This document shows, one piece after another, positions 1 through 55,215 of a stretch of DNA of 64,000 nucleotides. The notes below the pieces were generated by a model, which ran no database searches, was not told the origin of the DNA, and saw nothing but the letters and a program-made list of their open reading frames with translations. The DNA lies in NCBI GenBank assembly GCA_016708025.1, contig JADJGQ010000003.1:448457-512456 (forward strand), read 5' to 3'. How positions within the stretch are numbered: position 1 is the first letter of the stretch; each line of letters starts with the position of its first letter. The position numbers were made by a program, and so were the translations under genes. This DNA is from a bacterium. Lineage in GTDB: Bacteria; Zixibacteria; MSB-5A5; GN15; FEB-12.

Positions 1-3000
1 CGCCAATTATCCCCACTACGAACGCACGAACATACTTAATCCAAGTCTGCAGTATCCGATCGAGGCCCCAGCCTTCCAAAAGGGAAAGCAGTACGCCTGG
101 CAAGTACAGATTTTAGACAGCCGCGGCTATCCGCCGTCATCCAACAATGGACTGAGTGAGACCTGGAGTTTTCTGTACGATGCCGACACCACCACTCCTG
201 TCGAGTATCGTCGCATAGCTGGGCGAGTGATCGACTCTGCCACCAATCAGGCGATCACCGGCGCAACAGTCGTTTATCGACCGGTCAGATTGCGTGTGAC
301 AGACAGCGACTCAACCTGGGAAGTAAGCGATGATTCCATTCTGGCGATCAGCGGACCGTCGGGTGACTTCCGGATCGATAGCGCGATAAACAAAAGCTAC
401 TATGCTTTGACCGTTAGTCAGAAAGAATATCGTCCGAAAACTGCTATTGGCAGTCAAATGTATCTTAGTGGTGATATCGCGGAACAGGTAGTTCGCCTCA
501 CCTACCTCTCTCCCGGTATGCGTCGACTCGCCGGTATCGTCAGAGATTTCTTCACCAATGCGCCGGTGCCGAATGCGACTGTCACTTACCACGTTGTCAC
601 AGCTGTGACGACGACCGATACCAGTGGCGCCAATCACACTACTTACAATGACCATCCCCGCAAGCAATTGCAGACGGTGACCGATGCTCAGGGACGATTC
701 GAGTTCACTGAAACCGCCGATTCATCATATTACAGTCTCCAGTGCAGCGCCCCACCCGCCTACCTTGACTGCAAGGAGTCCGGCGAGACTCAATACCAGC
801 GCGGTGATATCGACAACTATACGCTGTTGATCAAGCCAAACGCCTGCAACCTTGCTGGTACCCTGACCTGGCCGGCGTACGAAGGGGTTGTCCCACTTCC
901 CAATACCATGGTGCAGTTGGTGAGGCTCTGCCGTGTCGAACACCGCACCGTGCAATTGCTACTCGGAGTATTCAGGACAGAAACCACAACCGAAGAAGTC
1001 GTGGCTTGCGGTCCCGAGGTCTCTGCGTATACCGGCCCAGATGGCCGCTTCGTTTTCACTCGGCTTCTTCCGCAGAGTCCCGATGATTTTGATCGGACCA
1101 ACTTGTCCGGGAATTTCGTCTATTCGCGTACGGTGGTCTCCAGACTGGTTGAGCTGACCTACAAAGTTAAAGTCGTCGATCCGAAATTTCAGCCCTATCT
1201 GTCGGTTGATTCCTTCGTCTTCCAACCGGGCGAAACGATCGAAACCGGCGAACATCAGTTAAAAGCCAAAGCCGGATCTATTGTCGGCCTGGTGCGCTGT
1301 GACACCGTGCCGGTCCCCGGCGCGAATGTCTACTTGTACAAAGCTGCGCGACGAACCCGAACTCCGGGCAACGCCTCTGCCGCTGGTACAAAGTCCGGCG
1401 CGAATGGAAGACTGCTCGGCTCGGGTGAGTCTGGTTCCTCCTCCGGCGACTCTGGCAGTTGGACCAACGAGCAGACAGGTCGACCCTCCGGAGAACCCCT
1501 CGCTCGAACCGCATCGGATCAGCAGGGAAACTACTTCTTTGCGCAAGTCCCGATCAACGACCCGCAACAGTCAACCGACCAGTATACTGTCTGGTTTGAT
1601 ACCGATGAGCACAACGATGCCGTCCGCGCCGCCCGTCTCGACCATGAGGGTCAGGCGGACACGGTCGATGTCAATTTGCTCCGCACCGGCGGACTGATCT
1701 ATGGCACGATCGTTGACAAGGGTGGCGCGTTCATTTCCGGCGCACGTGTCGAACTGCATCGACTGACCGACACACTCGCAGATTCGACAGCGACCTCATC
1801 CGACAGTCTGGTTGCCTGGAAGCAGACCGGCGAATCAGGCGCGTTCTCTTTCGCTGATCTTGAGCCAGCCACTTACTGGCTGACGTCCAGTCGGTCCGCA
1901 TACTCCACTGAAACGACGGGTCGATTCGAAGTCACATATGGTGATCGGCATCTCCGCGAACTGACGCTCAATCAGGCACAGGGAACGATTGCCATCACCG
2001 TGACTGATAAATCGTCCAGCAAGGGGATTCGCGACGTTTCGATCAAGTCGCCGCAGGTACCTTCGCTCGTCGGCTTCACCGCCGACAGCGGCAAGATCGT
2101 TGTTGACGCCATCGCTGATACCATCACCCTGCAGTTCCGCATGATCGGCTACGCCGACCTGGATACCTCCATTGTTGTGCCGCCACTCGATACGGTCAAA
2201 GTGAAGGTCACTCTTAATAAGCGGACCGGTGAATATCGACTGACTGTCATTGAGAAGGGAAACACTCCCGGCAAACCGCTCTCTGATATCCTGGTGACGG
2301 TCGGCAAATCCGACACGGCAACCACAGACTTCAACGGATATGCCATTTTCAAAGCGGCGCCTGCTGGAAAGCAGAAAATCAAAGTCTTCCCGCCGGACAC
2401 CAAGTACTACCTCAAAGATTACATCCCGTATGAAACCGAGGTAGAGATCCGCGAAGGGTTCAATCCCGATACCCTCGTAGTACAGCTTGTTCCGGCCGCG
2501 CGTCTAAGCGGTAAAGTGATCGATGCTGACTCTGCTAAGGCACTAAAAGACGTTTTGGTCAAGTTGGATGGTGGCTCCATTGAGACTCACACCAACGAAG
2601 ACGGCGAGTTCACGCTCAAGAATCTTCCGACTAATGAGACGATCAAGTTCCTGGTGAGAAAGGCCGGCTTCCGCAGCCTGTATCATACTTACGACAAAAA
2701 ACTGGTGGCAGGCGACAAGATCGAAGGTGTGACGATCAAGCTTGAGCGCTCCCCGATCGATTCGCTCATGGGCTTCGCTATTGCCCTGGATTCCATCGTC
2801 AGCAAGACCGGAGGAAACAGCCGCATCTTTGGCGCTATCGTTGATCTCCCCCCGACTTTCGGACTCAAACTCAAAGAATCCGGTACCGTACTCAACTTCA
2901 GCGACGTAGAAGTTGATGCTTCTTACAAGCCGGTCAACGATACTATCCGACTCTCCGCCAAGGAGCTTGCGGTCGAACTCTTTGGTTGCGAAGCAACCAT

Positions 3001-5071
3001 GAAGTACACTGATGGCCTGCAGTTGGAATGGGTCGACTCATCTAAAGCAGGCCGCATAACCGGAAACTTCACGATCAAAAACGTCTTCGAGAAGATCTTC
3101 CCGGATACAAAACTCCCTGAACTTTCGATCCCCAAGCAGTACGCCCCGTCATTCTGGGCAGGTGGTATCAATCGCGGTCTGGAGAAGTTCGGGCTCACTG
3201 CGACTGATTCGGAGATTCAGGCGAAATTCAAAGGTGTCGGACTCGGACTGGATTACCAGAAGACCTATGTTGACACCGGCGGCCTCCATCTGGCCGGTTC
3301 TCTCATCTTCAAAGAATATAAGGTCGGATTCGAGAATCTGAATCTCGGGCGTGATCCGGTCAGTAACGATATCGTCTTCAAAGCGGTCACCATCTCAACC
3401 AAGCCGCCTATCACTCTCAAGTTCGGTGTCTTTACTTTCGTCGACTCCTCTATGACCTGGGAGGCGACCGGCTTCCGCGCTTCGGGCGCGATCATTGTCC
3501 CGCCGCTCAACAACTGGACGGTCGGCTTCAAAGACCTGCGTATTTCGCCCGAGGGAGAGTTCCTCAGTCTGACGCTGAATCTTGACGAAAAGAACGGGAC
3601 GATCAAGGTACACGGACAGACCTTCCAGGTTAAGTCGCTGGAATACGGTACCGAGAATTTCGAGTCGGATACTCTTCCGCATAACCGGTTCTTCTCCTTC
3701 ACCGGTGAAATGAAATTCACCAAGTTGGACAAGCCGGTAGAGATCAAAGTCCGCTATAGCCAAAGCGACCAGTTCACCGGCAAGCTGACGTTTAACCAAT
3801 CCAAGACTTTCGCCGGATGTGTCACCCTGCAACTGGAGTCAATCGAACTTGGCTATGACAAAACCAAAGATGACCGCTTTGTCGGCTTCTCGGGCGGTGT
3901 CAAGTTTGGTTCGATCAAAGGTCTCTCCCTCCAGGCAAGTAACCTTCGCTTCTGGATGAGCGGCGCCGTCTCGGTTGATGAGATCAAAGCCGACTTCATC
4001 GCCGGTCCGGCCGAGATCGCCATCAAGATCCATTGGACGGATAGTCTCTTCGACGGAAGCGGCCTGATCCGCATCAAACCGGTCTTCAGCATGGGTGCGG
4101 AGTTCCGCTATGCGGGAAGCCAGGACTGGTGGATCAAAGTCACTGCCGGTATGCGTGTGCCGATGGGCCCCTGCGAATTGGTCGAGGTCCGCGGCGGTAT
4201 CGGCCGCAAAGACGACACCTGGCGTTTCCTCCTCGGTGGTCGCATTTCGCCTGCCAAACTAGATAAAGGGATCTCACTCGATATTGATGTCGAGGTTCAT
4301 TCCACTCCCAAAGGGGTGATCATCCTCGGCAACGCCTCGGTCGAAGTCGCCGGGAATCTCCAGATCGGGCGCGCCACCCTCGAGATCAATATCCCAGAGG
4401 AACGTGTCGTTGGCTCGATCGTCCTTGAATACAACAAGGAAGCTCTGGTCATCGGCGCTCAGGTTGATCTGGGCGTGCAGTTCGGTAAGTACTGGTATGT
4501 CCACGGTATGGCCAAGATCAAGTTCCTGGAGTTCTTCCATGCGGACGGCGTATTCGTTATCGCCAACAACTGGGAATGGCAGCACAAAGGAACACTGAAG
4601 AAGATCAGCGGCATTTATGTCGAATTGAACTCAGACTTCAGAGTTGACGCCAACTGGCGCGTGATCCGCTGGGGGCTTTACTTCGATCGTCATGGCATGA
4701 TCTACATCGGCTGGAACGGTGATTTCGCCGGATCGATCGATATGCGGGGCGGCGCCAATGCCTGGATCGGTCTCGATCTGGGTATTTTCGAGATCAGCCT
4801 CATTCAGGCGCAGGCCAACATGGCGTTCGCTGCCGCCATCTCCAAGACAGGTCCAGAGTGGGCCGCCATGGCTCATGGCAATTTCTCGCTGGAAGCTACC
4901 ATCGGATACTGCAACAATGCCAGATGCTGGTCGATCTGCTGGACATGCATCCTCCGCATTTTCGGCAAGTGCATCATCCCATTCCCGACCGGCGCCAAAG
5001 CCTGCGCCGCGATGTCGGCTGATGTCAGCTACAGTACGAGCCGTGGAACCAGTGTCAGTGTGAGCTTCTAA
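1..5071 (+). CDS. Giant exported/surface protein whose 5' end lies outside the window. It has tandem CarboxypepD_reg-like beta-sandwich repeats, then about 800 aa of beta-rich sequence of unassigned family and a Cys-rich tail.
   Basis: Frame 2 has no stop from nt 2 to the TAA at 5069-5071. Translated by eye, nt 2-226 read ANYPHYERTN...EYRRIAGR, so the 1614-aa track ORF is only part of a longer protein. Repeated units match carboxypeptidase-regulatory-like domains, e.g. IAGRVIDSATNQAITGATVVY, LAGIVRDFFTNAPVPNATVTY and LSGKVIDADSAKALKDVLVKL...NEDGEFTLKNLP. Confidence 0.75.
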   Translation, partial: ANYPHYERTNILNPSLQYPIEAPAFQKGKQYAWQVQILDSRGYPPSSNNGLSETWSFLYDADTTTPVEYRRIAGRVIDSATNQAITGATVVYRPVRLRVTDSDSTWEVSDDSILAISGPSGDFRIDSAINKSYYALTVSQKEYRPKTAIGSQMYLSGDIAEQVVRLTYLSPGMRRLAGIVRDFFTNAPVPNATVTYHVVTAVTTTDTSGANHTTYNDHPRKQLQTVTDAQGRFEFTETADSSYYSLQCSAPPAYLDCKESGETQYQRGDIDNYTLLIKPNACNLAGTLTWPAYEGVVPLPNTMVQLVRLCRVEHRTVQLLLGVFRTETTTEEVVACGPEVSAYTGPDGRFVFTRLLPQSPDDFDRTNLSGNFVYSRTVVSRLVELTYKVKVVDPKFQPYLSVDSFVFQPGETIETGEHQLKAKAGSIVGLVRCDTVPVPGANVYLYKAARRTRTPGNASAAGTKSGANGRLLGSGESGSSSGDSGSWTNEQTGRPSGEPLARTASDQQGNYFFAQVPINDPQQSTDQYTVWFDTDEHNDAVRAARLDHEGQADTVDVNLLRTGGLIYGTIVDKGGAFISGARVELHRLTDTLADSTATSSDSLVAWKQTGESGAFSFADLEPATYWLTSSRSAYSTETTGRFEVTYGDRHLRELTLNQAQGTIAITVTDKSSSKGIRDVSIKSPQVPSLVGFTADSGKIVVDAIADTITLQFRMIGYADLDTSIVVPPLDTVKVKVTLNKRTGEYRLTVIEKGNTPGKPLSDILVTVGKSDTATTDFNGYAIFKAAPAGKQKIKVFPPDTKYYLKDYIPYETEVEIREGFNPDTLVVQLVPAARLSGKVIDADSAKALKDVLVKLDGGSIETHTNEDGEFTLKNLPTNETIKFLVRKAGFRSLYHTYDKKLVAGDKIEGVTIKLERSPIDSLMGFAIALDSIVSKTGGNSRIFGAIVDLPPTFGLKLKESGTVLNFSDVEVDASYKPVNDTIRLSAKELAVELFGCEATMKYTDGLQLEWVDSSKAGRITGNFTIKNVFEKIFPDTKLPELSIPKQYAPSFWAGGINRGLEKFGLTATDSEIQAKFKGVGLGLDYQKTYVDTGGLHLAGSLIFKEYKVGFENLNLGRDPVSNDIVFKAVTISTKPPITLKFGVFTFVDSSMTWEATGFRASGAIIVPPLNNWTVGFKDLRISPEGEFLSLTLNLDEKNGTIKVHGQTFQVKSLEYGTENFESDTLPHNRFFSFTGEMKFTKLDKPVEIKVRYSQSDQFTGKLTFNQSKTFAGCVTLQLESIELGYDKTKDDRFVGFSGGVKFGSIKGLSLQASNLRFWMSGAVSVDEIKADFIAGPAEIAIKIHWTDSLFDGSGLIRIKPVFSMGAEFRYAGSQDWWIKVTAGMRVPMGPCELVEVRGGIGRKDDTWRFLLGGRISPAKLDKGISLDIDVEVHSTPKGVIILGNASVEVAGNLQIGRATLEINIPEERVVGSIVLEYNKEALVIGAQVDLGVQFGKYWYVHGMAKIKFLEFFHADGVFVIANNWEWQHKGTLKKISGIYVELNSDFRVDANWRVIRWGLYFDRHGMIYIGWNGDFAGSIDMRGGANAWIGLDLGIFEISLIQAQANMAFAAAISKTGPEWAAMAHGNFSLEATIGYCNNARCWSICWTCILRIFGKCIIPFPTGAKACAAMSADVSYSTSRGTSVSVSF

Positions 5072-5090
5072 CCGGATTGAGTAGAGGAAA

Positions 5091-7148
5091 ATGACTATGC
5101 ACATACTGCAATCAACACTCAGGCTCGCATCACTGATGCTCCTGACGATATTCCTTCTGCCGGTCCTCTCTACTGCGCAGGAGGAAGCCGAATTCGGCGT
5201 TTACCCGATGTCCGGGCCGGAGGGAATTCTCCTGGTCATCCAGGGACAACCCCTCCATCCGACCGTCGCCTCTCAGAACTCCGGTTGGGTCGGTTATCAT
5301 ATCTACCGCAAGGCAGACAGTGACACTAGTTATATCCGGATCACGTCCCAGCCGGTGTCGCGCGTCGGATCACTTGAGGAACTCGAGGCTTTTGCCGGTG
5401 GACCGATCGATGGACTGGAACGACTTGTTGGTCTCACAACCAAGCAAGAACTCTGGCAGCGGCTGGCCGCGAATGATTCGTCTGCGATGATCCTCGGCAT
5501 ATTCAGTCGCTCATTCTACGAAGCGATGGGTTTGTTGCGATGGGACCGCCTGGTCGAAAAGGGGAAAGCCTACAGCTATCGCGCTACCCGCGTCGACAAA
5601 AACGGCAAAGAATCTGAAGCCTCCGAACCGGTCAGCGCAACCTACGGCACTCCCCCCTTCTCACTGCTCGGGCCACTCGACCCGCAGATCGCAAATACCA
5701 AGAAAGGCGTCGAGTTAACTTGGCAAAGAAATCCTGACGATTCCGGCGGAATGAGCTATTCCGTATATCGCACACCGGACCTCGAGGGTTCTTTCATCCG
5801 CCTCAATCGTTACTCATTGATCCTGACTCCCGATTCCGCCACCGGCGAACCGCGCGGCACCTTTGTCGACACGACCGCCAGTCAGGGTCATGGATATTAC
5901 TATGCCGTCGTCTCAACTGACTATGCCGGCAATGAGAGCACCCGCGATAAAGTCCTTTCGATCCATGTCGCCGATCTGCTTCCTCCACCCATTCCACAGA
6001 ATGTCTTTGCTGATCCGGATGAGCTCGGAATCACGATCCGGTGGGACAAAGTCGACGATCCGGCGACTGCTGGCTACTATATCTACCGTAGTCTCGACCC
6101 TGACAGCAATTACATCAAGATCACCGAATCACTGCTTCCCTACGACACCGGGTGGTACATGGATCGCACTGCCACGGTGACCGATCGCGTTTTCTATCGT
6201 GTTTCTGCCGTCGACCAGTCCGGGAATGAGTCCGCCCCGTCCGCGCGGGCGCTCTCCCTCTACGAAAACTACGTGGTACCGCTTCCTCCGCAGGAAGTTC
6301 GGGCAATGCAGTCCGACAGCGGTGTTGTGATCTCGTGGATACGCAATGAAGAACCGGACCTGCAGGGATATTACCTCTTCCGCGCCGACAATTACGGCGG
6401 TGAACTGACTCAGATCTCCCCGTTGATCCCTCCGGACACACTCAATTATCGCGATTCATCGGACTACCTTTCCCCGCGCGGCGAATACTGGTACCTGGTG
6501 CAGGCGATCAATTTCACCGGCATCACCAGTCAGTATTCCGTACCAGTGGCGGTCAGCCCCTCCAAGGAAGAGTCTCCGGAACAGGTGCTGGCATTCTGGG
6601 GATATTATGAACCGGGCGCCGGCAGACTCTTCTGGCGTGCCCCCGATGATAATATGGTCGCGGGGTACAATCTCTATCGAACGACTACCGGGGATACCAC
6701 ACAATGGATTCTCCTCAATGCAAAGCCGCTAGACCGCACAGTCGGCGAATACCGCGACACGCTGGTCTCCCCAAATCAATTCTATCGCTATCGCATCTGC
6801 TCCGTGGATCCGAAAGGTCTTGAAGGCGACATGTCGCACATCGTCTCCTTTGTCACCTTTGAATCCGTCGCTCCACCTCCCGGAGGACTTCGTGTCGTCA
6901 GCACCGATGGCACGCCAAAACTGATCTGGAATCAGTCTCAGTTGAAGGAAATTGTCGGCTATCGCATTTACCGTCGCCAGGATAATATCGCCATGGCCAT
7001 TCATCCTCAGATGCTACCTGCCACGGCTAATGAGTATCAGGACACAACCGCCCAGCGAGGCATGAAGTACTACTACTCCATAAGCTCGGTGGACAGTTGG
7101 GGTCGCGAAAGCGAACGTAGCCCGGAGATAGAATACCTGGTTCGCTGA
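5091..7148 (+). CDS. Secreted protein with about six fibronectin type III-like domains
   Basis: N-terminal signal peptide (LASLMLLTIFLLPVLSTAQE). Six units end in the FN3-like strand motif: YSYRATRVDKNGKES, YYYAVVSTDYAGNES, FYRVSAVDQSGNES, WYLVQAINFTG, FYRYRICSVDPKGLE, YYYSISSVDSWGRES. It lies 19 nt downstream of the previous stop. Confidence 0.75.
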   Translation: MTMHILQSTLRLASLMLLTIFLLPVLSTAQEEAEFGVYPMSGPEGILLVIQGQPLHPTVASQNSGWVGYHIYRKADSDTSYIRITSQPVSRVGSLEELEAFAGGPIDGLERLVGLTTKQELWQRLAANDSSAMILGIFSRSFYEAMGLLRWDRLVEKGKAYSYRATRVDKNGKESEASEPVSATYGTPPFSLLGPLDPQIANTKKGVELTWQRNPDDSGGMSYSVYRTPDLEGSFIRLNRYSLILTPDSATGEPRGTFVDTTASQGHGYYYAVVSTDYAGNESTRDKVLSIHVADLLPPPIPQNVFADPDELGITIRWDKVDDPATAGYYIYRSLDPDSNYIKITESLLPYDTGWYMDRTATVTDRVFYRVSAVDQSGNESAPSARALSLYENYVVPLPPQEVRAMQSDSGVVISWIRNEEPDLQGYYLFRADNYGGELTQISPLIPPDTLNYRDSSDYLSPRGEYWYLVQAINFTGITSQYSVPVAVSPSKEESPEQVLAFWGYYEPGAGRLFWRAPDDNMVAGYNLYRTTTGDTTQWILLNAKPLDRTVGEYRDTLVSPNQFYRYRICSVDPKGLEGDMSHIVSFVTFESVAPPPGGLRVVSTDGTPKLIWNQSQLKEIVGYRIYRRQDNIAMAIHPQMLPATANEYQDTTAQRGMKYYYSISSVDSWGRESERSPEIEYLVR

Positions 7149-7173
7149 ATAGGATTAACCGGCAAATAAGCAT

Positions 7174-8874
7174 ATGACAAGTTCCCGATCCACTGGTTGG
7201 CTGAGCGCTCCCCTATTCATGGTGATCCTCGTTACCGGAATGGCGATGGCTCAATCTGATTCCTTGACCGCCAAGTCCTCCGGCTCGAGCTCTGCGCTCC
7301 GCTTCTCGGGTGAAATTGGGGCGTTTGGCGAACTCTACAATATGTCCGGCCGCCCCGACAACCGACCGTCATCCACCGGGCGGGTATTCCTCCGCTCCAC
7401 TCTGACTGCCTGGGAATCCATCAGCACCAACCTGAATCTGGTTCTTTCAACCGAAGGGAATTCCGCGCGCCAGGAAATCAACCAGCTTGATTTCAATCCG
7501 CGGTGGCGTTGGGGTGAGATGCACCTCGGTGACTTCACGACCGAATACACCCCGCTTACGCTTAACGGCATTCGCGTCCGCGGCGGATCGCTGATGCTGC
7601 AGCCAGGGAAGTTCCGGCTCGGTCTGCTCTCCGGTCGAACCAACCGCTCCGTGTCGACTGATTCCGATCGGCGCAGCTACGAACGGACGATCTCTGGTGG
7701 AGTGATTGGGATCGGCCAAACCCAGGGGTCACACTTCAATCTCACTTTCCTCACGGCCCGAGACCGCCTTGGTTCGCTGGCAGATATTCCGACCGACACC
7801 ACGATCGATACGCTCGGCATCGGCGATGATTCCACACAGAACCCGGTCAGTGTGACTCCGCAGGAGAATCTGGTTGTCTCGGCGTTGACAAACCTCAAGC
7901 TGTTTGATCGACATGTCACCTGGAGAAGTGAATTCAGCGCGAGTGCCATCACTCGTGATCGCCGCGCCGACCCGGTTGAGTCCGAAGATATCCCCGCTTT
8001 CCTCGCCGATATCTTCACCCCACGCGTCAGTAGCGGCGCTGATTACGCCTACACCACTGATCTGAATCTCGATCTCAAGAAGGTCGCGTTCACGGCGGGC
8101 TACAAATACATCGGCCCCGGCTATGTCTCCCTTGGAGTTACTTCTCTCCTCCCGGACCGCCAGACGGTCTCTGCCGGTATGCAATACCGTCATTCACGCG
8201 GCATGTTTAAGCTGGATGGCTCACACCAGACAGACAACCTGATCGACCAGAAGCTTGCAACAACGACTCGAACCCGCTTCTCCTCGGTCCTCACCTATCG
8301 TCTCGCCCGAGGCTGGAATGCCAATGCCGCTGTCACCGTGGCAGGTATGCAAAATGATGCCGCTGTGACCTCTTCCAAGGTCGATTACACCAGTCTGATG
8401 CTTCGCACTGGCCAAATCATGACTTTCTCGCGACGCCTCGGTCTCAAGATGCTGTCGCTCGACTATACGTATCAGCATGCCGAGGATCCCACCCCGGGTC
8501 GACAAACCAGTCGACTGGCCTCGCACTCGGCTACCCTCGGTAGTGCGATTGGCCTCACCGAATCATTGGAACTGACTGCTCAGTCAGGACTTGTCTCTTC
8601 GGAACGCGGCGACTCTCCTTCCGAATTATCACAAACCTATGCTCTCGGCCTCCGCAAATCTGCCTTGCAGGCGCGGCTGATGCTTTCAGCCACCACCACG
8701 ATCGCCGTGCAATCGCCGCATACCTCTTTCCGCAATGCCTTGCGCGGAAACTACCGGCTGACTCAAACCCTGTCGATGACCGCCGAGGTGGAAACCACCC
8801 TGCTTCGAGGCGGTCCGTCCACCAATCAGTACGAGGAGATCGCCTCGCGCCTGATGGTGACCCGGCAATTCTGA
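7174..8874 (+). CDS. Putative outer-membrane beta-barrel protein, family unassigned
   Basis: Signal peptide (LFMVILVTGMAMAQS), an alternating hydrophobic/polar strand pattern throughout, and a terminal aromatic residue (...MVTRQF). It lies 25 nt after the FN3 gene. Confidence 0.6.
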   Translation: MTSSRSTGWLSAPLFMVILVTGMAMAQSDSLTAKSSGSSSALRFSGEIGAFGELYNMSGRPDNRPSSTGRVFLRSTLTAWESISTNLNLVLSTEGNSARQEINQLDFNPRWRWGEMHLGDFTTEYTPLTLNGIRVRGGSLMLQPGKFRLGLLSGRTNRSVSTDSDRRSYERTISGGVIGIGQTQGSHFNLTFLTARDRLGSLADIPTDTTIDTLGIGDDSTQNPVSVTPQENLVVSALTNLKLFDRHVTWRSEFSASAITRDRRADPVESEDIPAFLADIFTPRVSSGADYAYTTDLNLDLKKVAFTAGYKYIGPGYVSLGVTSLLPDRQTVSAGMQYRHSRGMFKLDGSHQTDNLIDQKLATTTRTRFSSVLTYRLARGWNANAAVTVAGMQNDAAVTSSKVDYTSLMLRTGQIMTFSRRLGLKMLSLDYTYQHAEDPTPGRQTSRLASHSATLGSAIGLTESLELTAQSGLVSSERGDSPSELSQTYALGLRKSALQARLMLSATTTIAVQSPHTSFRNALRGNYRLTQTLSMTAEVETTLLRGGPSTNQYEEIASRLMVTRQF

Positions 8875-8960: not shown

Positions 8961-8990
8961 TTGACAACATGGAGCCCTAATGTATATTAT
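8961..8990 (+). promoter_or_regulatory. Sigma-70-like promoter for the first tail-fibre-domain gene
   Basis: TTGACA at 8961-8966, then TATATT at 8983-8988 (16-nt spacer) or TATTAT at 8985-8990 (18-nt spacer). A 6-bp hairpin (AGGGCC/GGCCCT) sits at 9003-9020 in the leader, and AAGGAG at 9065-9070 precedes the ATG at 9077. Confidence 0.5.
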
Positions 8991-9076: not shown

Positions 9077-11614
9077 ATGCGCCAGTTCCTCACTCTCCTG
9101 ACCGTTCTTTGCCTGGCATTTACGGTCTCACCTATTCTGGCCGGTCCGATCGCCGACTCGCTCGCATTCCAGGGGCGTCTCACCGATGCATCGGATGTCC
9201 CGGTTCCCGATGGACCGCGTGACCTCACCATCTCCCTCTGGACTGACTCGGTCGGCGGCACTATGCTCCATAGTGAAGTCGTCGTTGTGACCGTCAGCAA
9301 AGGACTCTATTCGACCTGTATCGGCTGCGCCAGCAGCTCGTTTTTTGATATCTTCAAAAGCCAATCCGTTTACCTGCAGGTACAATTGGCCGGATCACCA
9401 CCGATGACCCCGCGCACCCAGATGCGGAGCGTACCGTTCTCGGTCTCATCGTCGAGCCTTCATAATCAGGGCACAATGCCCGGCGGTTCCGTTATTAGTG
9501 CCGCGGTCAGTTCTGTCGGAAACCTCGCCGGTGGCGGCGGCGGTGCAGCAGCCGCTTCGTATGCGCGACTCGCCGCAGATAGTGATGGCGATGGTCATGA
9601 CGACTTTGTCATCACCGATAGCGCCAGAACGGATGGCGCTCATTCGGTCATGGGTGGGGATCTGGACGGTGACGGAATCCCGGACGTTGCCATTGCCTCA
9701 GTGGTGCGTCCCACAACCGCCAGTCTCGCCATCAAAACCAAGGGGACCAGCGCCCAGCGCCTTAGCGCTGGCGGCGACTGCGACGATACCGACTCTGAGA
9801 TATACGCAGACTGCGACGACGACAATGACGGCATTGTCGACCGCTCCGCTGCCTTGCGCATTACCCCAACCACATCGAGTCTGGCTATCAATAGCAAAGG
9901 GACCAGCGCCAAGCGACTGCGCGCCGGCGGTGATTGCGACGACACAGACTCCGAACTCTATACCGACTGCGACGACGACGACGATGGTCTCATAGACCGG
10001 TCAGCTGCCTTACGTATTACTCCAACCACCTCGAGTCTGGCGATCAAAACCAAAGGTACCAGCGCCCAACGCCTCAGCGGCGGCACAGACTGCGACGACT
10101 TGAGCGCGACCAATTACCTCGACTCTGACGACGACGGTGATGGCATCCCCGAAGATGAAATCGAGTCATCAGTCATGCCCGGAACCTGCAGCGTGGCCAT
10201 TAAAACCAAAGGGACTGGCGCCGACGCAAATCGCGTCGTCACAACCACCACGCCGGACTCTGTAGTCACCGAACAAACCTTTGAGTTCGAAAACTCCCTC
10301 CTCATGCCTGCTCTGATGAAGGCCAAAGAAAAGGCCAATCGAACCAAGTGCTCCAACAATCTGCGCTATCAGTCACCGGTCACTGTCCATGAAGGCGAAC
10401 TGGCCGTTGATTCCACCGGCTCTGGATTGAACATGTTCTCCGACGACGATGGCGACGGTATCCCGGAGTCCTCAGTAAAGGTCGGCTCGGGTGCATCGCT
10501 TCTCGGAGGCGCACTTCCAGGTGGAGCGGTCTTATCGGCACGCTGCGACATTGACGATGACGGCGATGCCGAAGGCGAGATTGTGTCCTCCGTCGTGCCA
10601 GGTACGTCCGCTGTAGCCATCAAAACCAAGGGGACCGGCGCTGACAAAAACCGGACAGCAGCAAGCTCCTGCGACGACAGCTCGGCGGTCGACTATTTGG
10701 ATATCGATGATGACGCCGACGGCATCTCAGAGGCATATGCGGTGAGTTCCGTTGTCGCAGGGTCCGGCGGCGGCGGAGGTGGCGCCGCATCAGCTTCTTA
10801 CGCCGCGACTGGACGTTGGTACACTGACTCCGACGATGATGGTGTCCCGGAAGGTGACATTGAAGCAATAGTCACTCCCACGACCAACAGTGTCGCTATC
10901 AAGACCAAAGGGACCGGTGCCGATGCGAATCGCGTTGTGATCACGCAAACCACCGATACCACTCGTGCATCTACGGTCACATCTGTCGATCTCGATGGCG
11001 ACGGACTTGCGGACAGATCAGTAACTATGGACTGCGATGATACCGACGGCGGCATAACCGTAGAAGGCGCTTCCAGCGCGGTTAAAATCAAACACAAAGG
11101 CTGGGATGGCTTGATCTACGGGCGTATGGCCATCGAAACCGGCGGCAACATTGAAGTTGATTTCGGCGGTAACGGTGTCGGCTTCGTGTCTCAACGGTTT
11201 GGCATAGGCGTACTCTCGCCGACGAATCCGCTTGAACACTCTTCAGGCGCGCACTTGACAGCCGGTGGCGTCTGGACCAACGCGTCAGATGAAAATCTCA
11301 AAGAGAACTTCCAGCCGGTTGATGGCGCTGAACTGCTCGAGAAGATCGAACAGCTCCCAATTTCCGAGTGGAACTACAAAACTGAATCCGACGAGATCAA
11401 GCATATCGGCCCGACCGCCCAGGATTTCCAGGCGACGTTCGGAGTCGGTTCTGATGGCAAGTCGATCTCGACGATCGATCCTTCCGGCATCGCCCTGGCC
11501 GCGATTAAGGAACTCAAGAAAGAGAATACCGAACTGAAGAAGCAAATCGAAGAACTCTCTGGCCTGAAGAACGAAATTGAGCAACTCAAGAAGCTGCTCA
11601 TGGAAAAGAAGTAA
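9077..11614 (+). CDS. Signal-peptide protein with acidic Ca-binding-like repeats and a C-terminal tail-fibre/endosialidase intramolecular-chaperone (Peptidase S74-like) domain plus coiled coil
   Basis: The C-terminus reads GGVWTNASDENLKENF...LPISEWNYK...HIGPTAQDF...IDPSGIALAAIKELKKEN, then a heptad-like tail. The N-terminus reads LAFQGRLTDASDVPVPDG...ISLWTDSVGG. DxDxDG-type acidic motifs recur. A strong RBS is present. Confidence 0.8.
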   Translation: MRQFLTLLTVLCLAFTVSPILAGPIADSLAFQGRLTDASDVPVPDGPRDLTISLWTDSVGGTMLHSEVVVVTVSKGLYSTCIGCASSSFFDIFKSQSVYLQVQLAGSPPMTPRTQMRSVPFSVSSSSLHNQGTMPGGSVISAAVSSVGNLAGGGGGAAAASYARLAADSDGDGHDDFVITDSARTDGAHSVMGGDLDGDGIPDVAIASVVRPTTASLAIKTKGTSAQRLSAGGDCDDTDSEIYADCDDDNDGIVDRSAALRITPTTSSLAINSKGTSAKRLRAGGDCDDTDSELYTDCDDDDDGLIDRSAALRITPTTSSLAIKTKGTSAQRLSGGTDCDDLSATNYLDSDDDGDGIPEDEIESSVMPGTCSVAIKTKGTGADANRVVTTTTPDSVVTEQTFEFENSLLMPALMKAKEKANRTKCSNNLRYQSPVTVHEGELAVDSTGSGLNMFSDDDGDGIPESSVKVGSGASLLGGALPGGAVLSARCDIDDDGDAEGEIVSSVVPGTSAVAIKTKGTGADKNRTAASSCDDSSAVDYLDIDDDADGISEAYAVSSVVAGSGGGGGGAASASYAATGRWYTDSDDDGVPEGDIEAIVTPTTNSVAIKTKGTGADANRVVITQTTDTTRASTVTSVDLDGDGLADRSVTMDCDDTDGGITVEGASSAVKIKHKGWDGLIYGRMAIETGGNIEVDFGGNGVGFVSQRFGIGVLSPTNPLEHSSGAHLTAGGVWTNASDENLKENFQPVDGAELLEKIEQLPISEWNYKTESDEIKHIGPTAQDFQATFGVGSDGKSISTIDPSGIALAAIKELKKENTELKKQIEELSGLKNEIEQLKKLLMEKK
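9710..10177 (+). repeat. Three in-frame tandem copies of a 156-bp (52-aa) unit inside the CDS
   Basis: Units start at 9710, 9866 and 10022 (PTT[A/S]SLAI[K/N][T/S]KGTSA[Q/K]RL..GGDCDDTDSE[I/L]Y.DCDDD.DG..DRSAALRIT). The third copy is diverged. Degenerate AIKTKGTGAD units recur near 10196, 10617 and 10896. Confidence 0.85.
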
Positions 11615-11675: not shown

Positions 11676-11779
11676 ACACGCACTACTGCCTGTGACTTTC
11701 ATTCCGCGCACAGGCCAAAATCTACTTCCGATGATAAGAACGCTGTAAACGATAATTGGGATCACCAAAGGAGTACCGT

Positions 11780-14218
11780 ATGCGTCGCACTCTCGTCTGG
11801 AGCCTCACCTTCATCGTGGCCGCCCTTGCTTTTGTCGGCGCTGCGACAGGAGCCCCCTCTACTGTTAGCTACCAGGGTCGTCTCACCAGCTCGTCGGGCA
11901 CTCCGGTCGCCGATGGCTCCTACTCTATCACCTTCAGCATCTGGACTGACTCGGTCGCCGGCTCAATGATCTGGAGCGAATCACAGACTGTCCAGGTAAC
12001 CGGCGGTGGGGGACTCTTCTCCACCCAGTTGGGCGGCCTTCAGCCGCTCGGAGGAGAGTTGATCATTCATGCTGACGACGAACTCTTTCTTCAGACCGCC
12101 GTTTCGGGTACGCCGCTCTTACCCAGGTTGGCCCTGGGATCGGTTCCGCATGCCTTTGTGTCTTCCAGCGTGAGTCAGACTGTACCGGGGAAAGGCTCTG
12201 TTCACATGGGCGTGGGAGAAGACACGACCAAGATCATCACAACCCATGAGAGCTTCTCTAATCTCCTCGACTCCTACGTTCACCTCACCGATGATCGCGC
12301 ACTCATGGGACTAAAGTCCTACAACCCATCACAATCATATCGGGGCTCCAGTAATAGTGAGATCTCTGGAAGTGTTATTCGGAACTTTCTTGATCTCGAT
12401 GATGACGCTGATGGCGTCCCGGATGTCGTGGAAGATATGTCGGTCCAGCCTGGAACCGCTACTCTGAGTGTCAGTTCGTCAAAGAGACGTTTTAATCTGA
12501 TGGACGCCTTCCCTCAGCGCTTTGTGGTGAGTGCCCACGACTCAGACACGGCCAGTTCGGTCAGTTCTGCGTTGGAATCAGACGCGGATGCTGACGGCAT
12601 CGCTAATGGAAGCGTCTGGGCAAAGGTCGACAACACCGACGTGATCAGTGTCGCCGGAGTTGATGTCGATGAAGACGGCGACACCGATGTTGGCAACTCT
12701 TCCTCGGCCAAGATTTCACGTTCGATTCTCAAGACCTTCTTTGAGCGCGGCGATAAACCGACGCAAAGCCAGATCGTTGACAGCGTCGACGAGAACGGCG
12801 CATATCATGGCACCACTCGGTACACCGGTTCAGACTTTGAAAGATTCCATGTCAGCCTGATGCCGGACTCGGCTGTCGTTTCAACTGAAGCAAGCAATCC
12901 CGATGGGTCATCTTCGAGCCGCATGCGAGTCCGTGTCAACGAACTCGAAGCAAGACTACAGTCAATAGGAATACTGGCCAGGTCAAGCTCCACGAGTTCG
13001 CTCACGCCGGATTCGGCTTCTGAGACAATTGAAGTACATGGTGCTGGCGCACAAATTGGAAGAGTCGTCTCTGTTTCGTCGAGCACCGATATCGACAGTG
13101 CAGTGACCGAGATCCTCGGGCAGGATGCGACTAGCGCTGGCAGTATTCGACTCACCGCGCAACCAGCCGGACCGACTGTGGTGAATCTTTCGAGTATGGA
13201 TGCCTCCTCCGGCACGCCCATCATAAAGGGTAGTGCCCTCATGACCTCATCCCCCAGCAGTGTTGCACACTCACTGGAGTGGGATGAAGATGGAGATGGT
13301 GTCTTTGATCGCCGGGTCACCGAAGATTGCGATGATGACGACGCCGGAATCTCTATTCAGGCCGGTGTTGCCATTCCCAAGTTCATCAACGTCACAGCCC
13401 AGGCTCAGGCTGCCGCGCAAAAGGCTGATATCGGAATGTTGATGGGAGTCGGCTCGGATACTACCATAAAAATCGGTGCCGATGATGATGAGGCTGGAGT
13501 CACCATACAGTCCGGAGTCGCCATTCCGAGGTTCATCGAAATGAATGCCAAATCGCAGAGTTCAGCCCATCAAGCCAGCGTTGGACTTGTTATGGGCGCC
13601 GGCCCCGATACTGCGGTCGCAGTTTACAGCGACGAATCAGAAACTAAGCTCAGATTCAAGGCACCCCAATCCGGCCATTATACCTTTGATTTTGCATTCA
13701 CGCCCGCCAGTGGTTCGGTCTCTATGACTGATTCACTTGGCGCGATCTCCATGCAAATGGACGGCGATGGTCGCTTGGGAGTTGGCGGACCGGCTCATGC
13801 CAACAATCCCATTGATCATCCCTCCAGTGGGGCACACTTGACTTCCGGCGGTGTCTGGACCAACGCGTCCGACGAAAATCTCAAAGAGAATTTCAGGATG
13901 GTAAATGGCGAAGAACTCCTGGAGAAGCTCGAAGAACTTCCGATCAGCCAGTGGAACTACAAGAGTGAATCTGACAATGTGACCCACATCGGCCCGACCG
14001 CGCAAGACTTCCAGAAAGTCTTTGGCGTTGGCGAGAACGACAAGACCATCTCGACTATTGATCCCTCCGGTATCGCTCTTGCCGCGATCAAAGAGCTGAA
14101 TAAACAGAACCTTCAACTCCATGAAGAGAGCAAGAAGATCAGGAAAGAAAATGAACGACTGCAGAAAGAGCTGAATGAGTTGAGAGCCAGAGTCGACAAA
14201 CTGATCTCCGGCAAATAG
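11780..14218 (+). CDS. Paralog of 9077-11614: signal-peptide protein with the same N-terminal module and the same S74-like C-terminal chaperone domain
   Basis: The ATG at 11780 is preceded by AAGGAG (11768-11773), so the track start at 11756 is probably too early. N-terminus: VSYQGRLTSSSGTPVADGSYSITFSIWTDSVAGS. C-terminus: GGVWTNASDENLKENF...LPISQWNYK...HIGPTAQDF...IDPSGIALAAIKELNKQN, plus a coiled coil. Confidence 0.8.
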   Translation: MRRTLVWSLTFIVAALAFVGAATGAPSTVSYQGRLTSSSGTPVADGSYSITFSIWTDSVAGSMIWSESQTVQVTGGGGLFSTQLGGLQPLGGELIIHADDELFLQTAVSGTPLLPRLALGSVPHAFVSSSVSQTVPGKGSVHMGVGEDTTKIITTHESFSNLLDSYVHLTDDRALMGLKSYNPSQSYRGSSNSEISGSVIRNFLDLDDDADGVPDVVEDMSVQPGTATLSVSSSKRRFNLMDAFPQRFVVSAHDSDTASSVSSALESDADADGIANGSVWAKVDNTDVISVAGVDVDEDGDTDVGNSSSAKISRSILKTFFERGDKPTQSQIVDSVDENGAYHGTTRYTGSDFERFHVSLMPDSAVVSTEASNPDGSSSSRMRVRVNELEARLQSIGILARSSSTSSLTPDSASETIEVHGAGAQIGRVVSVSSSTDIDSAVTEILGQDATSAGSIRLTAQPAGPTVVNLSSMDASSGTPIIKGSALMTSSPSSVAHSLEWDEDGDGVFDRRVTEDCDDDDAGISIQAGVAIPKFINVTAQAQAAAQKADIGMLMGVGSDTTIKIGADDDEAGVTIQSGVAIPRFIEMNAKSQSSAHQASVGLVMGAGPDTAVAVYSDESETKLRFKAPQSGHYTFDFAFTPASGSVSMTDSLGAISMQMDGDGRLGVGGPAHANNPIDHPSSGAHLTSGGVWTNASDENLKENFRMVNGEELLEKLEELPISQWNYKSESDNVTHIGPTAQDFQKVFGVGENDKTISTIDPSGIALAAIKELNKQNLQLHEESKKIRKENERLQKELNELRARVDKLISGK
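13343..13642 (+). repeat. Two in-frame tandem 150-bp (50-aa) units
   Basis: AGISIQAGVAIPKFINVTAQAQAAAQKADIGMLMGVGSDTTIKIGADDDE is followed directly by AGVTIQSGVAIPRFIEMNAKSQSSAHQASVGLVMGAGPDTAVAVYSDESE. Confidence 0.7.
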
Positions 14219-23741: not shown

Positions 23742-23999
23742 ATGGACGGGACTATGCAGAATATCATGAGACTGAATACGCGCGCAATGATGTGTGCTGC
23801 TTTGGTACTGACGGGATCTCTGCTGATTGGCGGTTGTGCCACCAGTGGACAGATCTGCACCAAGCCTCCGGTCGCCGCCGAAGAGTTGCAACTCGATAAG
23901 CAGCTCAGCAAAGAGATCATCGACGACCACATTTACTTCTCGAAAGAAGCCTCCAGTGGTGGTCGGTCGTTTGGCGGAGGCGGATGTGGGTGTAACTGA
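23742..23999 (+). CDS. DUF4266-type small lipoprotein
   Basis: Lipobox LLIGGC and the family-typical tail HIYFSKEASSGGRSFGGGGCGCN. The start is ambiguous (23742, 23754 or 23766). Confidence 0.7.
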   Translation: MDGTMQNIMRLNTRAMMCAALVLTGSLLIGGCATSGQICTKPPVAAEELQLDKQLSKEIIDDHIYFSKEASSGGRSFGGGGCGCN

Positions 24000-25270
24000 T
24001 GCGCATCAAACCGATCAAACATGCGCTGGCGTCGCTCACCGCTGTGGTACTTGGTTCGACCGCGCTCACCACGCACGCCCAAAATCGCTCGGAAAGCTCC
24101 ATCCTCTTCTATAGTGAAAAGGATCGGATCAAGGCGACCGAGGCGATGTTCAACCTGACCAGGCAGCTTAAGAATCAGTTTACTCTGAATCTGAATCTGA
24201 CCTATGATGGTCTGACCGGAGCTTCGCCGACCGGCGGTTCTCCCTCAAAGTATCCGATGACCATTACCCGGTCATCGGGCGGCGGCCGCGTGGTGACTGC
24301 CGCAGGAGAGATCCCGATCGACAAGAGCTTCCAGGATACTCGCTTTTCCGGCGACATGGCGCTTTCGCGCAGATTCTGGGAGCGCACCACTTTTACCGTG
24401 GGATTGCACCTCTCCAGCGAACATGACTACAAGTCGACCGGTTTCAGCGGCGCCGTCTCTCAGGAATTCGATGGCGGCAAAACTGCCCTCAGCCTCTCCG
24501 GTTCGATCGCTCGGGACAATGTCTCCATGCTTGGTGGCATGCCGGAGCCGTTTACCGATATCACGGCAGAGGATGAAGATGATGGCGAGCGACGACTCGG
24601 ACGAGATGGCCGTCGCAAGACCACCTATGACCTGGTCGCAGGGGTCACTCGCATTCTTGGCAAACGGACCATGCTCCGTTTTAACTATTCGCTATCGGAT
24701 GCCTCCGGCTACCTGACCGATCCTTACAAGATCATCAGTGTGGTACAGCCAGTTGACTCCGCCGATCCGGGCGAACCAGTGCAGAACCTGCATGAAAAGC
24801 GTCCCGACCGAAGAACCGGCAACGCGCTCTTTGGTCAGCTACGCCACTCGATCTCTTTGGGAGTTCTCGATGCTTCCTATCGATACTTCTGGGATGATTG
24901 GGGAGTTGTTTCGCATACTACTACTTTTTCCCTGCGCCACGACTTTGGAAAATCCGGCGCGGTGAAACCGTCGATCCGATGGTACCAGCAGTCTCGTGCG
25001 GATTTCTCCCGCCCATTCCTGGTTCAGGGAGTGCCGTTACCGCAGTATGCTTCGGCCGACAGCCGTCTGGCCAAATTCTCAGGATTAACCTACGGACTTG
25101 GCTACGACCTGCCGATCTCGCTCGCCTCTACCCTGCAACTGTCGTTGGAGTGGTACTCGCAGAGCGGAGACCCAAGCCCGCCGGAAGCGTTCGGACCGCT
25201 GCAGGAGTTTGATCTCTTTCCCGACCTGAAAGCGTTTATGCTCCGCATCGGTTATGCCAAAGACTTTTGA
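23999..25270 (+). CDS. DUF3570-type putative outer-membrane protein
   Basis: Signal peptide ending THAQ. At 423 aa it fits the size I recall for this family, and it is beta-rich. It is translationally coupled to the DUF4266 gene through a TGATG overlap at 23997-24001, which is the usual partner arrangement. Confidence 0.65.
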   Translation: MRIKPIKHALASLTAVVLGSTALTTHAQNRSESSILFYSEKDRIKATEAMFNLTRQLKNQFTLNLNLTYDGLTGASPTGGSPSKYPMTITRSSGGGRVVTAAGEIPIDKSFQDTRFSGDMALSRRFWERTTFTVGLHLSSEHDYKSTGFSGAVSQEFDGGKTALSLSGSIARDNVSMLGGMPEPFTDITAEDEDDGERRLGRDGRRKTTYDLVAGVTRILGKRTMLRFNYSLSDASGYLTDPYKIISVVQPVDSADPGEPVQNLHEKRPDRRTGNALFGQLRHSISLGVLDASYRYFWDDWGVVSHTTTFSLRHDFGKSGAVKPSIRWYQQSRADFSRPFLVQGVPLPQYASADSRLAKFSGLTYGLGYDLPISLASTLQLSLEWYSQSGDPSPPEAFGPLQEFDLFPDLKAFMLRIGYAKDF

Positions 25271-45568: not shown

Positions 45569-46882
45569 ATGAACAGACATCTTGCATTTTTCTTGCTCTT
45601 GTTTCTGGTGATCTCTTCAAGTCTTGTCGAGGCCGCAGATTCAACCTCAATAGTAAAGGTCGGCGTCACGCTCCGCAGTCGTATCGAAACGACTGATTAT
45701 GCCACCAATCTTGGTTTCAATACCTCGCACTTTCCGATTTCCGGGACAAGTTACTATCGTCAACGTACTGGCCTGATGGTCCAAGTCATGCCAATTCCGA
45801 AGTACGAGTTGGGGATCAGGCTGACCAATGAATTCCGGCGCTACTTTGCCCCTACCGGCACAAAACGTACTTATGATGAAGTGGTCTTTGACCAGTTGTA
45901 TGTCAAAGGAGACAGCATTGGTGGACTGCCGCTAGCTGCAACTATCGGCCGCCAGAACATTACGCTTGGCGAAGGGTTCTTGTTCGCAGAGGGTGGTCCT
46001 CTCGATGGTTCTCGCACGGCCTATTTCAACGCGGTCAATCTGGCCTGGCAATTTTCTGCAAAGAGCACTATGCGTGTGATTTTCGCCAATCAGCAGAAAG
46101 ATGATGACATCCTTCCGGTGATCCATGACCAGCACAAGGGACTCACAGAGGGAGATGAAAAGTCCGCACTAGTCTATTTCAATACTTCGCTCGGCACTAT
46201 CAAGCTCGAGCCATATCTGATGCAGATGGAGCGTAATGCATCGAGCAAGCTCCCCCATGCCGGAATTGGATGCATCGGCCTTCGCGCCCAGGCACCAATC
46301 ACGCCGCAGATCACGATCACGGGTGAACTGGCCAAACAGTTCGGTGATTGGGGAGATCAGGATCACACAGCACTGGGTGGCTACGGCTATTTCGAGTGCA
46401 AAACCAACTGGCCACTCTATTTCCCATCGATTTTTACTGTGGGAGGCGTTTACCTCACCGGCGATGACGAGTCGACCGCAAAACATGAAGGATGGGATCC
46501 GCTCTTTGGCCGCTGGCCGAAGTGGTCCGAGTCGTATGTCTATACACTCACCAATGAGACGGGTGTTGCCTACTGGAGCAATTTTGCTTCATTGTTTCTG
46601 AAAACCTCCGCCCCGATCGGATCCGATCTGATCGCCACGATGGAGTACCATTACCTCATGGCGGACGAATGTCCAACGCAAGCGATGCGTTGGAGTTACT
46701 CAGTCTTCGCCGATGCGGTTGGCACCTCTCGCGGGGACCTGACTATTATGAAACTGAGTTACCGGATCAAGCCACGCCTGACAGGGCACATCTTGTATGA
46801 GCATTTTGACCCGGAATCATTTTATGCAGACTTCGCCAAGTCTTCCTCCTGGATGCGGATGGAAGTGATGTTGACTTTCTAA
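45569..46882 (+). CDS. Putative outer-membrane porin-like beta-barrel, family unassigned
   Basis: Signal peptide FLLLFLVISSSLVEA, beta-strand periodicity, and the ending ...RMEVMLTF. It lies 16 nt upstream of the symporter gene. Confidence 0.55.
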   Translation: MNRHLAFFLLLFLVISSSLVEAADSTSIVKVGVTLRSRIETTDYATNLGFNTSHFPISGTSYYRQRTGLMVQVMPIPKYELGIRLTNEFRRYFAPTGTKRTYDEVVFDQLYVKGDSIGGLPLAATIGRQNITLGEGFLFAEGGPLDGSRTAYFNAVNLAWQFSAKSTMRVIFANQQKDDDILPVIHDQHKGLTEGDEKSALVYFNTSLGTIKLEPYLMQMERNASSKLPHAGIGCIGLRAQAPITPQITITGELAKQFGDWGDQDHTALGGYGYFECKTNWPLYFPSIFTVGGVYLTGDDESTAKHEGWDPLFGRWPKWSESYVYTLTNETGVAYWSNFASLFLKTSAPIGSDLIATMEYHYLMADECPTQAMRWSYSVFADAVGTSRGDLTIMKLSYRIKPRLTGHILYEHFDPESFYADFAKSSSWMRMEVMLTF

Positions 46883-55202: not shown

Positions 55203-55215
55203 GCGGACAAAAACA

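Follow-up and report, generated by a model that had tools for sequence, protein, structure and literature searches.

A predicted 26-strand outer-membrane barrel and a cargo-leading module distantly related to TANFOR as a candidate two-partner-like export or anchoring system

Polymorphic toxins of the Bacteroidetes can be led by TANFOR (TIGR02542), the N-terminal domain of large, Sec-dependent proteins in which it precedes variable C-terminal cargo (PMC7073777). The class includes WHH and AHH toxins with SUKH immunity, and the neighbourhoods of its genes are enriched in Fn3 (COG3401), PKD and SprB-repeat proteins and in substrates of type IX secretion (the T9SS), which has been proposed, speculatively, as the export route of these toxins (Jana, Salomon and Bosis, 2020; PMC7073777). 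According to the supplement of that study, TANFOR genes of Cellulophaga, Aquimarina and Tenacibaculum are closely followed by the gene of a recurrent unannotated protein of 750–800 amino acids with a signal peptide (PMC7073777). Unannotated proteins encoded downstream of TANFOR genes include WP_051333182.1, WP_083629362.1 and WP_132724457.1. Here we analyse a three-gene unit at the start of a 64,000-nucleotide stretch of DNA from a Zixibacteria genome (GenBank assembly GCA_016708025.1, contig JADJGQ010000003.1, positions 448,457 to 512,456 of the forward strand), the whole of which is hereafter called the window. The unit encodes a giant cargo protein (gene 1), an exported protein with repeats resembling fibronectin type III (FN3) domains (gene 2) and an outer-membrane barrel (gene 3).

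We propose that this barrel and cargos led by a particular N-terminal module constitute a two-partner-like export or anchoring system, and we give this reading a probability of about 0.55. It builds on the observed structure of the genes, the predicted fold of the barrel, the co-occurrence of barrel and module seen from both sides, a fusion of the two, and the diversity of the cargos. Judged by sequence, cargos led by a TANFOR-like N-terminal domain would be the known part of this picture, and the barrel partner, the wider phyletic range and the non-toxin cargo would be new. A system was defined as a barrel of the gene 3 family and a module-bearing protein that are encoded on one strand and no more than about 10 kb apart, and genes 1 and 3 of the window form such a pair. 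The unit and its boundary comprise the following features.

2..5071, + strand: gene 1, truncated at its 5' end by the window edge; an open frame with 1,689 codons out of the cargo protein's ~1,900.
2..181, + strand: end of the N-terminal module, its last ~60 residues (ANYPHYE...GKQYAWQVQILD...SETWSF), found by tblastn across lineages.
209..2746, + strand: array of CarboxypepD_reg-type beta-sandwich domains, stalk-like and interrupted by a single low-complexity insert, from Pfam and a self-profile.
2702..5071, + strand: C-terminal domain of 789 amino acids, all-beta; its tail is Cys-rich and ends in ...SVSF; 42–89% identity in relatives.
5091..7148, + strand: gene 2, exported protein of 685 amino acids that has a signal peptide and six FN3-like repeats, of which the first contains an insert.
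7174..8874, + strand: gene 3, outer-membrane barrel of 566 amino acids with a signal peptide, 26 predicted strands and a C-terminal beta-signal, ...TRQF.
8961-8988, + strand: promoter-like site at the downstream boundary of the unit, TTGACA-N16-TATATT, an 11/12 consensus match of near-consensus sigma-70 type.

The frame of gene 1 is open from nucleotide 2 to a stop at 5069–5071 and has no start codon within the window. An earlier reading of the letters of the window alone, hereafter the original prediction, had concluded that the giant protein continues upstream, and this is borne out by full-length relatives of 1,896–1,912 amino acids, from which it follows that ~212 codons lie upstream of the window. 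These relatives begin with a signal peptide, in keeping with the predicted export of the gene 1 product, and the signal peptides claimed for genes 2 and 3 are both visible. The intergenic gaps of 19 nt (genes 1 and 2) and 25 nt (genes 2 and 3) were reproduced exactly; no terminator-like site was found on the + strand within 5072–8874, and the order of the trio recurs in relatives, in agreement with the view that the three genes are one unit. The next gene downstream begins at 9077, after the promoter-like site, and was said to have a promoter of its own; the site itself stands, as a pattern match to the consensus, which is no measure of function.

The constant element of the cargos is a module of ~270 amino acids and two domains, placed directly after the signal peptide, which is followed by the motif PFPSPYxSDW. 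The 60-residue module end present in the window falls near residue 210 of the partner protein in every case. Gene 1 was searched in pieces, and this module end was the only part that tblastn found in loci of Ignavibacteria, Gemmatimonadota, Eisenbacteria, Kryptoniota and Bacteroidota, the stalk and the C-terminal domain being found in the close clade only. The original prediction had taken the giant CarboxypepD_reg fibre itself as the partner of the barrel, and this has to be revised: the fibre is conserved in the Zixibacteria-like clade only, and it is the N-terminal module that is the constant partner. In L007, the nearest full-length relative, the module takes up amino acids 27–290. When the complete N-termini of the relatives L007, L005 and L004 were scanned with Pfam, sub-threshold immunoglobulin (Ig)-like matches alone were obtained, and a module profile had no meaningful match among the sequences of solved structures.

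A scan for the barrel, with one genome per species, returned 49 loci, which belong to Zixibacteria (the nearest, at 65–68% identity), Ignavibacteria, Calditrichota, Gemmatimonadota/Longimicrobiales, Eisenbacteria, WOR-3, Kryptoniota and Bacteroidota. On this basis the window was assigned to a Zixibacteria-like bacterium of the FCB group (Fibrobacterota-Chlorobiota-Bacteroidota and relatives). With hidden Markov models (HMMs), a module-bearing open reading frame (ORF) was detected on the same strand in 42 of the 54 non-duplicate barrel loci, and eight of the 12 loci without one are truncated contigs. From the side of the module, a metagenome scan gave 79 loci, and the barrel is present in all but one of the 18 that have enough flanking sequence (17/18). 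Altogether, roughly 100 loci with both partners were collected. Co-occurrence in related genomes was the point on which the original prediction had staked itself, and the genes do co-occur across phyla, barrel and module being found together in Zixibacteria, Ignavibacteria, Calditrichota, Gemmatimonadota, Eisenbacteria, Kryptoniota and Bacteroidota. The orders module-FN3-barrel, module-barrel and barrel-module were all seen, and this variation makes simple inherited synteny less likely as the cause of the linkage. The full trio, in the same order and with cargos of 1,896–1,912 amino acids, recurs in the Zixibacteria-like clade, and a full trio with a very divergent cargo of 1,900–2,056 amino acids is found in Ignavibacteria.

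Barrel and module also occur in a single chain. The protein P0248 (865 amino acids) consists of a module (amino acids 10–279) fused via an acidic linker to a barrel (amino acids 337–862); assemblies of two samples contain it, and its gene is followed by those of a cargo with its own module and of an FN3 protein. Stand-alone module proteins of 282–334 amino acids adjoin barrels, and the size of module proteins as a whole runs from 282 amino acids, which is the module alone, to more than 3,700.

Some genomes hold a second, paralogous system (L007/L018, L010/L014, L008/L019, L009/L021), in which a module protein of 1,417–1,490 amino acids stands directly before the barrel, without an FN3 gene; from these sequences it appears that one organism can run several cargo-barrel pairs. 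No second copy was found within the 64-kb window. In several phyla two-component regulators adjoin the system (L004 151–3914, L005 1–1675, L057 4663–8330, L139 6775–9815), the types being a Reg_prop/Y_Y_Y histidine kinase with a LuxR-type regulator, a LytTR-type regulator, and a response regulator with a TPR protein, and it is possible that these are dedicated regulators.

The AlphaFold model of gene 3, built on a 50-sequence alignment, is of good quality (predicted local distance difference test, pLDDT, 85.5; predicted template modelling score, pTM, 0.73) and upholds the assignment of its product as a beta-barrel. It has 26 strands (amino acids 42–565, to the C-terminal Phe), which start straight after the signal peptide, and contains neither a plug nor a periplasmic domain. 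Gene 3 has no match in Pfam or NCBIfam, even at E ≤ 10, and no sequence relative in the PDB, whether searched with phmmer or with the 50-sequence profile; a known porin or BamA/TamA family, the identity that the original prediction had held up against itself, was thus not recovered by any of these searches. In a Foldseek comparison with the PDB, MtrB comes first (6r2q_B, E 1.3e-9, template modelling score 0.53), followed by the 24-strand ushers FimD/PapC and then by generic large barrels, and TonB-dependent transporters, AlgE and porins are also listed, at E 1e-5 to 1e-6. A word index yielded 126 homologs, all unnamed and without Pfam domains, and an exhaustive profile search puts the family at 3,068 clusters at 50% identity (E ≤ 1e-3), or 1,224 at E ≤ 1e-30; a sequence identical to the gene 3 barrel was seen only on a 2.5-kb contig. 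In the papers searched on TANFOR, TIGR02542, 26-stranded barrels and toxin export in Bacteroidota, we found no description of this barrel family.

Conservation in the barrel is highest in the long odd-numbered connections L1–L3, L7 and L8 (mean 0.68–0.78), the short turns averaging 0.40, and of 63 near-invariant positions 26 are in loops and two in turns; the outward orientation of the odd-numbered loops is assumed from the usual topology of outer-membrane proteins. Loops conserved in this way on the model would fit a conserved protein partner, because ordinary porins have the opposite pattern.

The family includes further fusion variants (P0197, P0189, P0202, P0207, P0212, P0246), some of which have a TPR-rich N-terminal extension of ~270–500 amino acids before the barrel, and one variant is a lipoprotein with three Ig-like repeats in that place. 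At L042 (9986–11958) the barrel is split into two ORFs of 321 amino acids, and at L016 (2213–7882) the cargo gene has an in-frame stop; decay of these copies or errors of assembly would explain both.

The cargos behind the module are diverse and include CarboxypepD_reg arrays (the window), PKD giants, Peptidase_S8 and Peptidase_C25. On plasmid pEMTOL03 of Emticicia oligotrophica DSM 17448, a barrel homolog (EMTOL_RS21260, HMM E 1.6e-33) stands directly before the gene of a 2,719-amino-acid module protein (EMTOL_RS21255), in which the module occupies amino acids 7–289 (E 6e-19) and the C-terminus is a WHH nuclease (7.6e-12); next comes a SUKH-1 immunity gene (EMTOL_RS21250), and a SprB-repeat giant is encoded upstream. 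This cargo must leave the producing cell, since it is a nuclease toxin paired with an immunity gene. Barrel-module pairs are also present in Runella sp. SP2, whose barrel is DTQ70_RS30335, and in Persicobacter sp. JZB09.

In the window, the cargo is a CarboxypepD_reg giant as originally described, with Pfam matches to CarboxypepD_reg (2.5e-33) and CarbopepD_reg_2 (5.7e-23). Repeats in its self-profile (amino acids 72–148, 176–250 and 566–639, and weaker ones) span approximately amino acids 70–900, and this stalk is the least conserved part of gene 1 among relatives, with 72% identity vs 89% for the C-terminal part (L007). The C-terminal 789 amino acids, more strongly conserved in the Zixibacteria-like clade than any other part of the cargo, have no match in Pfam, NCBIfam or PDB sequences. 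Within the clade both ends of the cargo are conserved and its middle is variable, a sequence pattern which suggests an anchor-stalk-head fibre. The terminal ...SVSF was also considered as a general beta-signal or anchor of cargos and was rejected, as it is confined to the Zixibacteria-like clade.

How does the module relate to TANFOR? The protein P0136, whose gene adjoins a barrel homolog, bears the Joint Genome Institute name 'TANFOR domain-containing', scores 42.3 bits with TIGR02542 vs a cut-off of 67, and aligns with the module profile in hhalign at 99.2% (E 7e-20). The modules of L007, Emticicia and Runella have no match to TIGR02542, and that of L054 reaches E 0.012. At the level of sequence a distant relationship is supported, in which the module is a distant sister of TANFOR and no member of it. 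Both kinds of protein have a conserved N-terminal domain right after the signal peptide, variable C-terminal cargo and Fn3, PKD and SprB neighbours, and the layout of WHH nuclease and SUKH-1 gene in Emticicia is the same as that reported for TANFOR toxins (PMC7073777). However, the module stays below the TIGR02542 cut-off, comprises two domains in ~270 amino acids as opposed to one of ~147, and ranges far beyond the Bacteroidetes. The window cargo, moreover, has no toxin or immunity gene and instead a conserved 789-amino-acid C-terminus followed by the FN3 gene, and the TANFOR study reports no barrel partner and proposes the T9SS (PMC7073777).

Among the secretion systems that have been named, the logic of the proposed one appears, by analogy, most like that of two-partner secretion (type Vb; TpsA/TpsB, CdiA/CdiB), with parts that are not homologous. 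Both would join an N-terminal targeting domain on large variable cargos to an adjacent dedicated barrel of ~570 amino acids. The type Vb barrel, however, is a 16-strand Omp85 protein with POTRA domains, whereas gene 3 has 26 predicted strands and no POTRA, and the TPS domain is a beta-helix, whereas the module is, by weak matches, Ig/FN3-like; ShlB, Bac_surface_Ag and Haemagg_act gave no matches with genes 1–3 or with the N-termini of L007, L005 and L004. Autotransporters (types Va, Vc and Ve) have a 12-strand translocator in the passenger chain, unlike the separate 26-strand protein seen here, and Autotransporter, YadA_anchor and IAT_beta have no Pfam match in genes 1–3. The signature of T9SS cargos is likewise without a match in genes 1–3, and is present in unrelated neighbour genes of L003, L005 and L141.

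Three further comparisons concern the barrel itself. MtrB of the MtrCAB complex (PDB 6r2q_B) is also a 26-strand barrel without a plug of its own and encloses a partner protein, but it has no sequence relationship to gene 3, which lacks an MtrB_PioB Pfam match, and genes 1 and 2 encode no cytochromes. The ushers FimD/PapC are large 24-strand barrels that pass folded Ig-like subunits singly, and the cargo here is likewise a string of beta-sandwiches; gene 3, however, is without the usher plug and the N- and C-terminal usher domains, no PapD-like chaperone is present, and Usher, PapC_N and PapC_C have no Pfam match. With the T9SS-associated barrels PorP/SprF there is a likeness of setting, an outer-membrane barrel gene adjoining the gene of a giant surface protein in bacteria of the FCB group, with SprB-repeat giants in some loci; here, though, there is no PorP_SprF match, the barrel is much larger, and an N-terminal module takes the place of a C-terminal T9SS signal. 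The original prediction, which could not match the trio to a named secretion system and saw no TPS/POTRA, autotransporter or T9SS C-terminal-domain signatures, agrees with the Pfam and NCBIfam searches, and the defining features tested for types Va, Vb, Vc and Ve, T9SS cargo, ushers, MtrB/PioB and BamA/TamA/porins are all absent.

On how the module docks, which way transport runs, whether the cargo is exposed at the surface and what the FN3 protein does, we infer the following. The system would be one of the FCB group, with two core parts, the barrel and the module-led cargo. The products of genes 1–3 would cross the inner membrane by Sec, after which the N-terminal module would dock to the barrel, probably at those conserved loops that face its lumen or the outside. 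Since the 24-strand ushers, by analogy, suggest that the barrel is wide enough, it would pass folded beta-sandwich domains to the surface, and the cargo would be retained there through its module. In the cargo of the window, the module may thus be an anchor, the CarboxypepD_reg array a variable stalk and the 789-amino-acid domain a conserved head, which together would make a giant surface fibre, and the six-FN3 protein would be accessory to large cargos, maybe as a periplasmic or surface scaffold. Export or anchoring of a giant fibre by a dedicated barrel was the core of the original prediction; it is still something that we infer, and the fusion and the toxin and protease cargos of the same module are now its best support.

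Several points weigh against this reading. The module lies mostly upstream of the window and was hence studied in relatives, and of the two structure predictions that had been suggested, only that of the barrel succeeded, the model of the C-terminal 789 amino acids being unusable (pLDDT 35, four-sequence alignment). In four evaluable loci (L015, L028, L050 and L053) the barrel is present and the module was not detected. The P0248 fusion is a single cluster, its two contigs being 100% identical over the gene, and the fused module could lie in the periplasm, plug the barrel or be threaded outward; as the TPR-barrel fusions (P0197 and others) show, periplasmic N-terminal extensions also occur in the barrel family. 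Finally, several loci have genes for T9SS substrates close by, and help from another secretion system is possible.

The last of these points leads to the alternative that survives best, though we consider it unlikely: the barrel may be a sheath or anchor only, as in MtrB-MtrA or LptD-LptE, with the cargo exported by other means, for example by the T9SS. It would account well for the best fold match, MtrB being a 26-strand sheath around its partner, and for the stand-alone modules and the P0248 fusion, which look like stable subunits and less like transient substrates. Por_Secre_tail proteins and SprB-repeat giants in several neighbourhoods would also suit it, as would the enrichment of T9SS substrates near TANFOR genes (PMC7073777). 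However, no T9SS C-terminal domain was present in any module-bearing cargo examined, the analysis gave no link between the loci and T9SS core genes, and a plug-less 26-strand barrel beside each cargo exceeds the needs of an anchor.

A second alternative takes its cue from the TonB-dependent transporters, AlgE and porins among the Foldseek matches. The barrel would then be a channel for solutes or polymers, either an uptake porin or a polysaccharide exporter of the GfcD/AlgE kind, co-encoded with its neighbours as in a locus of the polysaccharide-utilisation type. Partners as different as a toxin with its immunity gene, C25 and S8 proteases and adhesin-like giants are too diverse for one substrate, and the constant element of the loci is a protein module, fused to the barrel in P0248, and no enzyme. 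The barrel has no POTRA, usher or other recognisable protein-handling domain, and the two-component regulators beside some loci recall those of nutrient loci, both of which agree with a channel; conserved outward loops are nevertheless unusual for porins, and neither polysaccharide-synthesis genes nor TonB-box or plug features were seen at the loci, so that we regard this explanation as improbable. Least credible is a purely structural assembly, in the periplasm or outer membrane and at no time exposed at the surface, such as an envelope tether below the barrel, for although the barrel N-terminus is periplasmic by the usual topology, other members carry TPR extensions at that end and a chain of six FN3 domains could, by domain count, span the periplasm, toxin-immunity and protease cargos would be senseless in the periplasm of their own producer, and cargos reach 3,700 amino acids.

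Beyond the export or anchoring system proposed here, we tentatively entertain a stronger version, which we rate at somewhat less than an even chance. It would be a new secretion system of the FCB group, in which a 26-strand translocon recognises a TANFOR-like module and carries giant adhesins, proteases and contact-dependent nuclease toxins out of the cell; it would supply the missing export route of TANFOR toxins and be analogous to type Vb, having evolved independently. That route has been open since 2020, with the T9SS only a speculative answer, and the adjacent barrel is a concrete candidate. About 3,000 clusters of an unannotated large outer-membrane barrel would acquire a defined partner and a role that can be tested, and cultured carriers exist in Emticicia oligotrophica DSM 17448, Runella sp. 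SP2 and Persicobacter sp. JZB09. If true, the proposal would add a secretion or anchoring route in mostly metagenomic phyla (Zixibacteria, Ignavibacteria, Gemmatimonadota, Calditrichota), and would provide a rule for annotation, the N-terminal module being a marker of surface or secreted cargo.

The third component of the unit, gene 2, was originally described as a protein with six FN3 domains. Six internal repeats of ~95 amino acids are indeed present, with the FN3-like signature Y-x-Y-x-V-x-A-V-D-x-x-G-x-E-S; five are full (204–285, 311–382, 409–482, 513–580 and 610–676) and the first is split by an insert (60–90 and 152–176). Their identity as FN3 rests on weak matches, because no Pfam fn3 model reaches its cut-off: the FN3 region of CbhB in NCBIfam (1.6e-14) and faint matches of orthologs to fn3 and Fn3_SaeA. 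No meaningful match was found among the sequences of solved structures, and the contig collection searched contains no record of the exact product. A gene 2-like FN3 protein is encoded on the same strand in 28 of the 54 barrel loci, mainly beside giant cargos. The FN3 scaffold of the original prediction therefore keeps its place as a frequent accessory and is no universal part of the system.

In loci of Gemmatimonadota/Longimicrobiales, a protein of ~790 amino acids without a family match is encoded between an 800-amino-acid module protein and the barrel (e.g. L004 6864–9245). It occupies the position that the FN3 protein has in other loci and has no similarity to gene 2.

Immediately downstream of the unit, on the + strand, are two paralogous genes for exported proteins of 845 and 820 amino acids (9077–11614 and 11756–14218), each with a C-terminal Peptidase_S74 intramolecular-chaperone domain (1e-13) and an N-terminus weakly like that of the Bdellovibrio 'mosaic adhesive trimer' fibre (8e-9). 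In the relatives L007 and L008 their ends are conserved and their middles swapped, a mosaic, fibre-like pattern. These genes lie downstream of the trio in the nearest relatives only and have the promoter-like site described above as their own.

Elsewhere in the window, the + strand encodes three other predicted outer-membrane proteins of barrel type, unrelated to gene 3, at 23999–25270 (DUF3570, 2e-104), 43561–45351 (a weak DUF5916 match) and 45569–46882 (a weak Alginate_exp match). The guanine-plus-cytosine (GC) content dips to 0.47 at 54–56 kb, over genes for a C-5 cytosine DNA methylase (53725–54795) and an HNH-endonuclease protein (55144–56154), both on the + strand, and 53725–56154 may be a restriction-modification or mobile island. 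GC skew is negative from 1 to 48 kb and positive from 48 to 64 kb, with the change of sign at about 47–50 kb and a cumulative minimum near 47 kb; no replication genes were seen there, the genes at the change being an SSF symporter and an HlyD/AcrB efflux pair.

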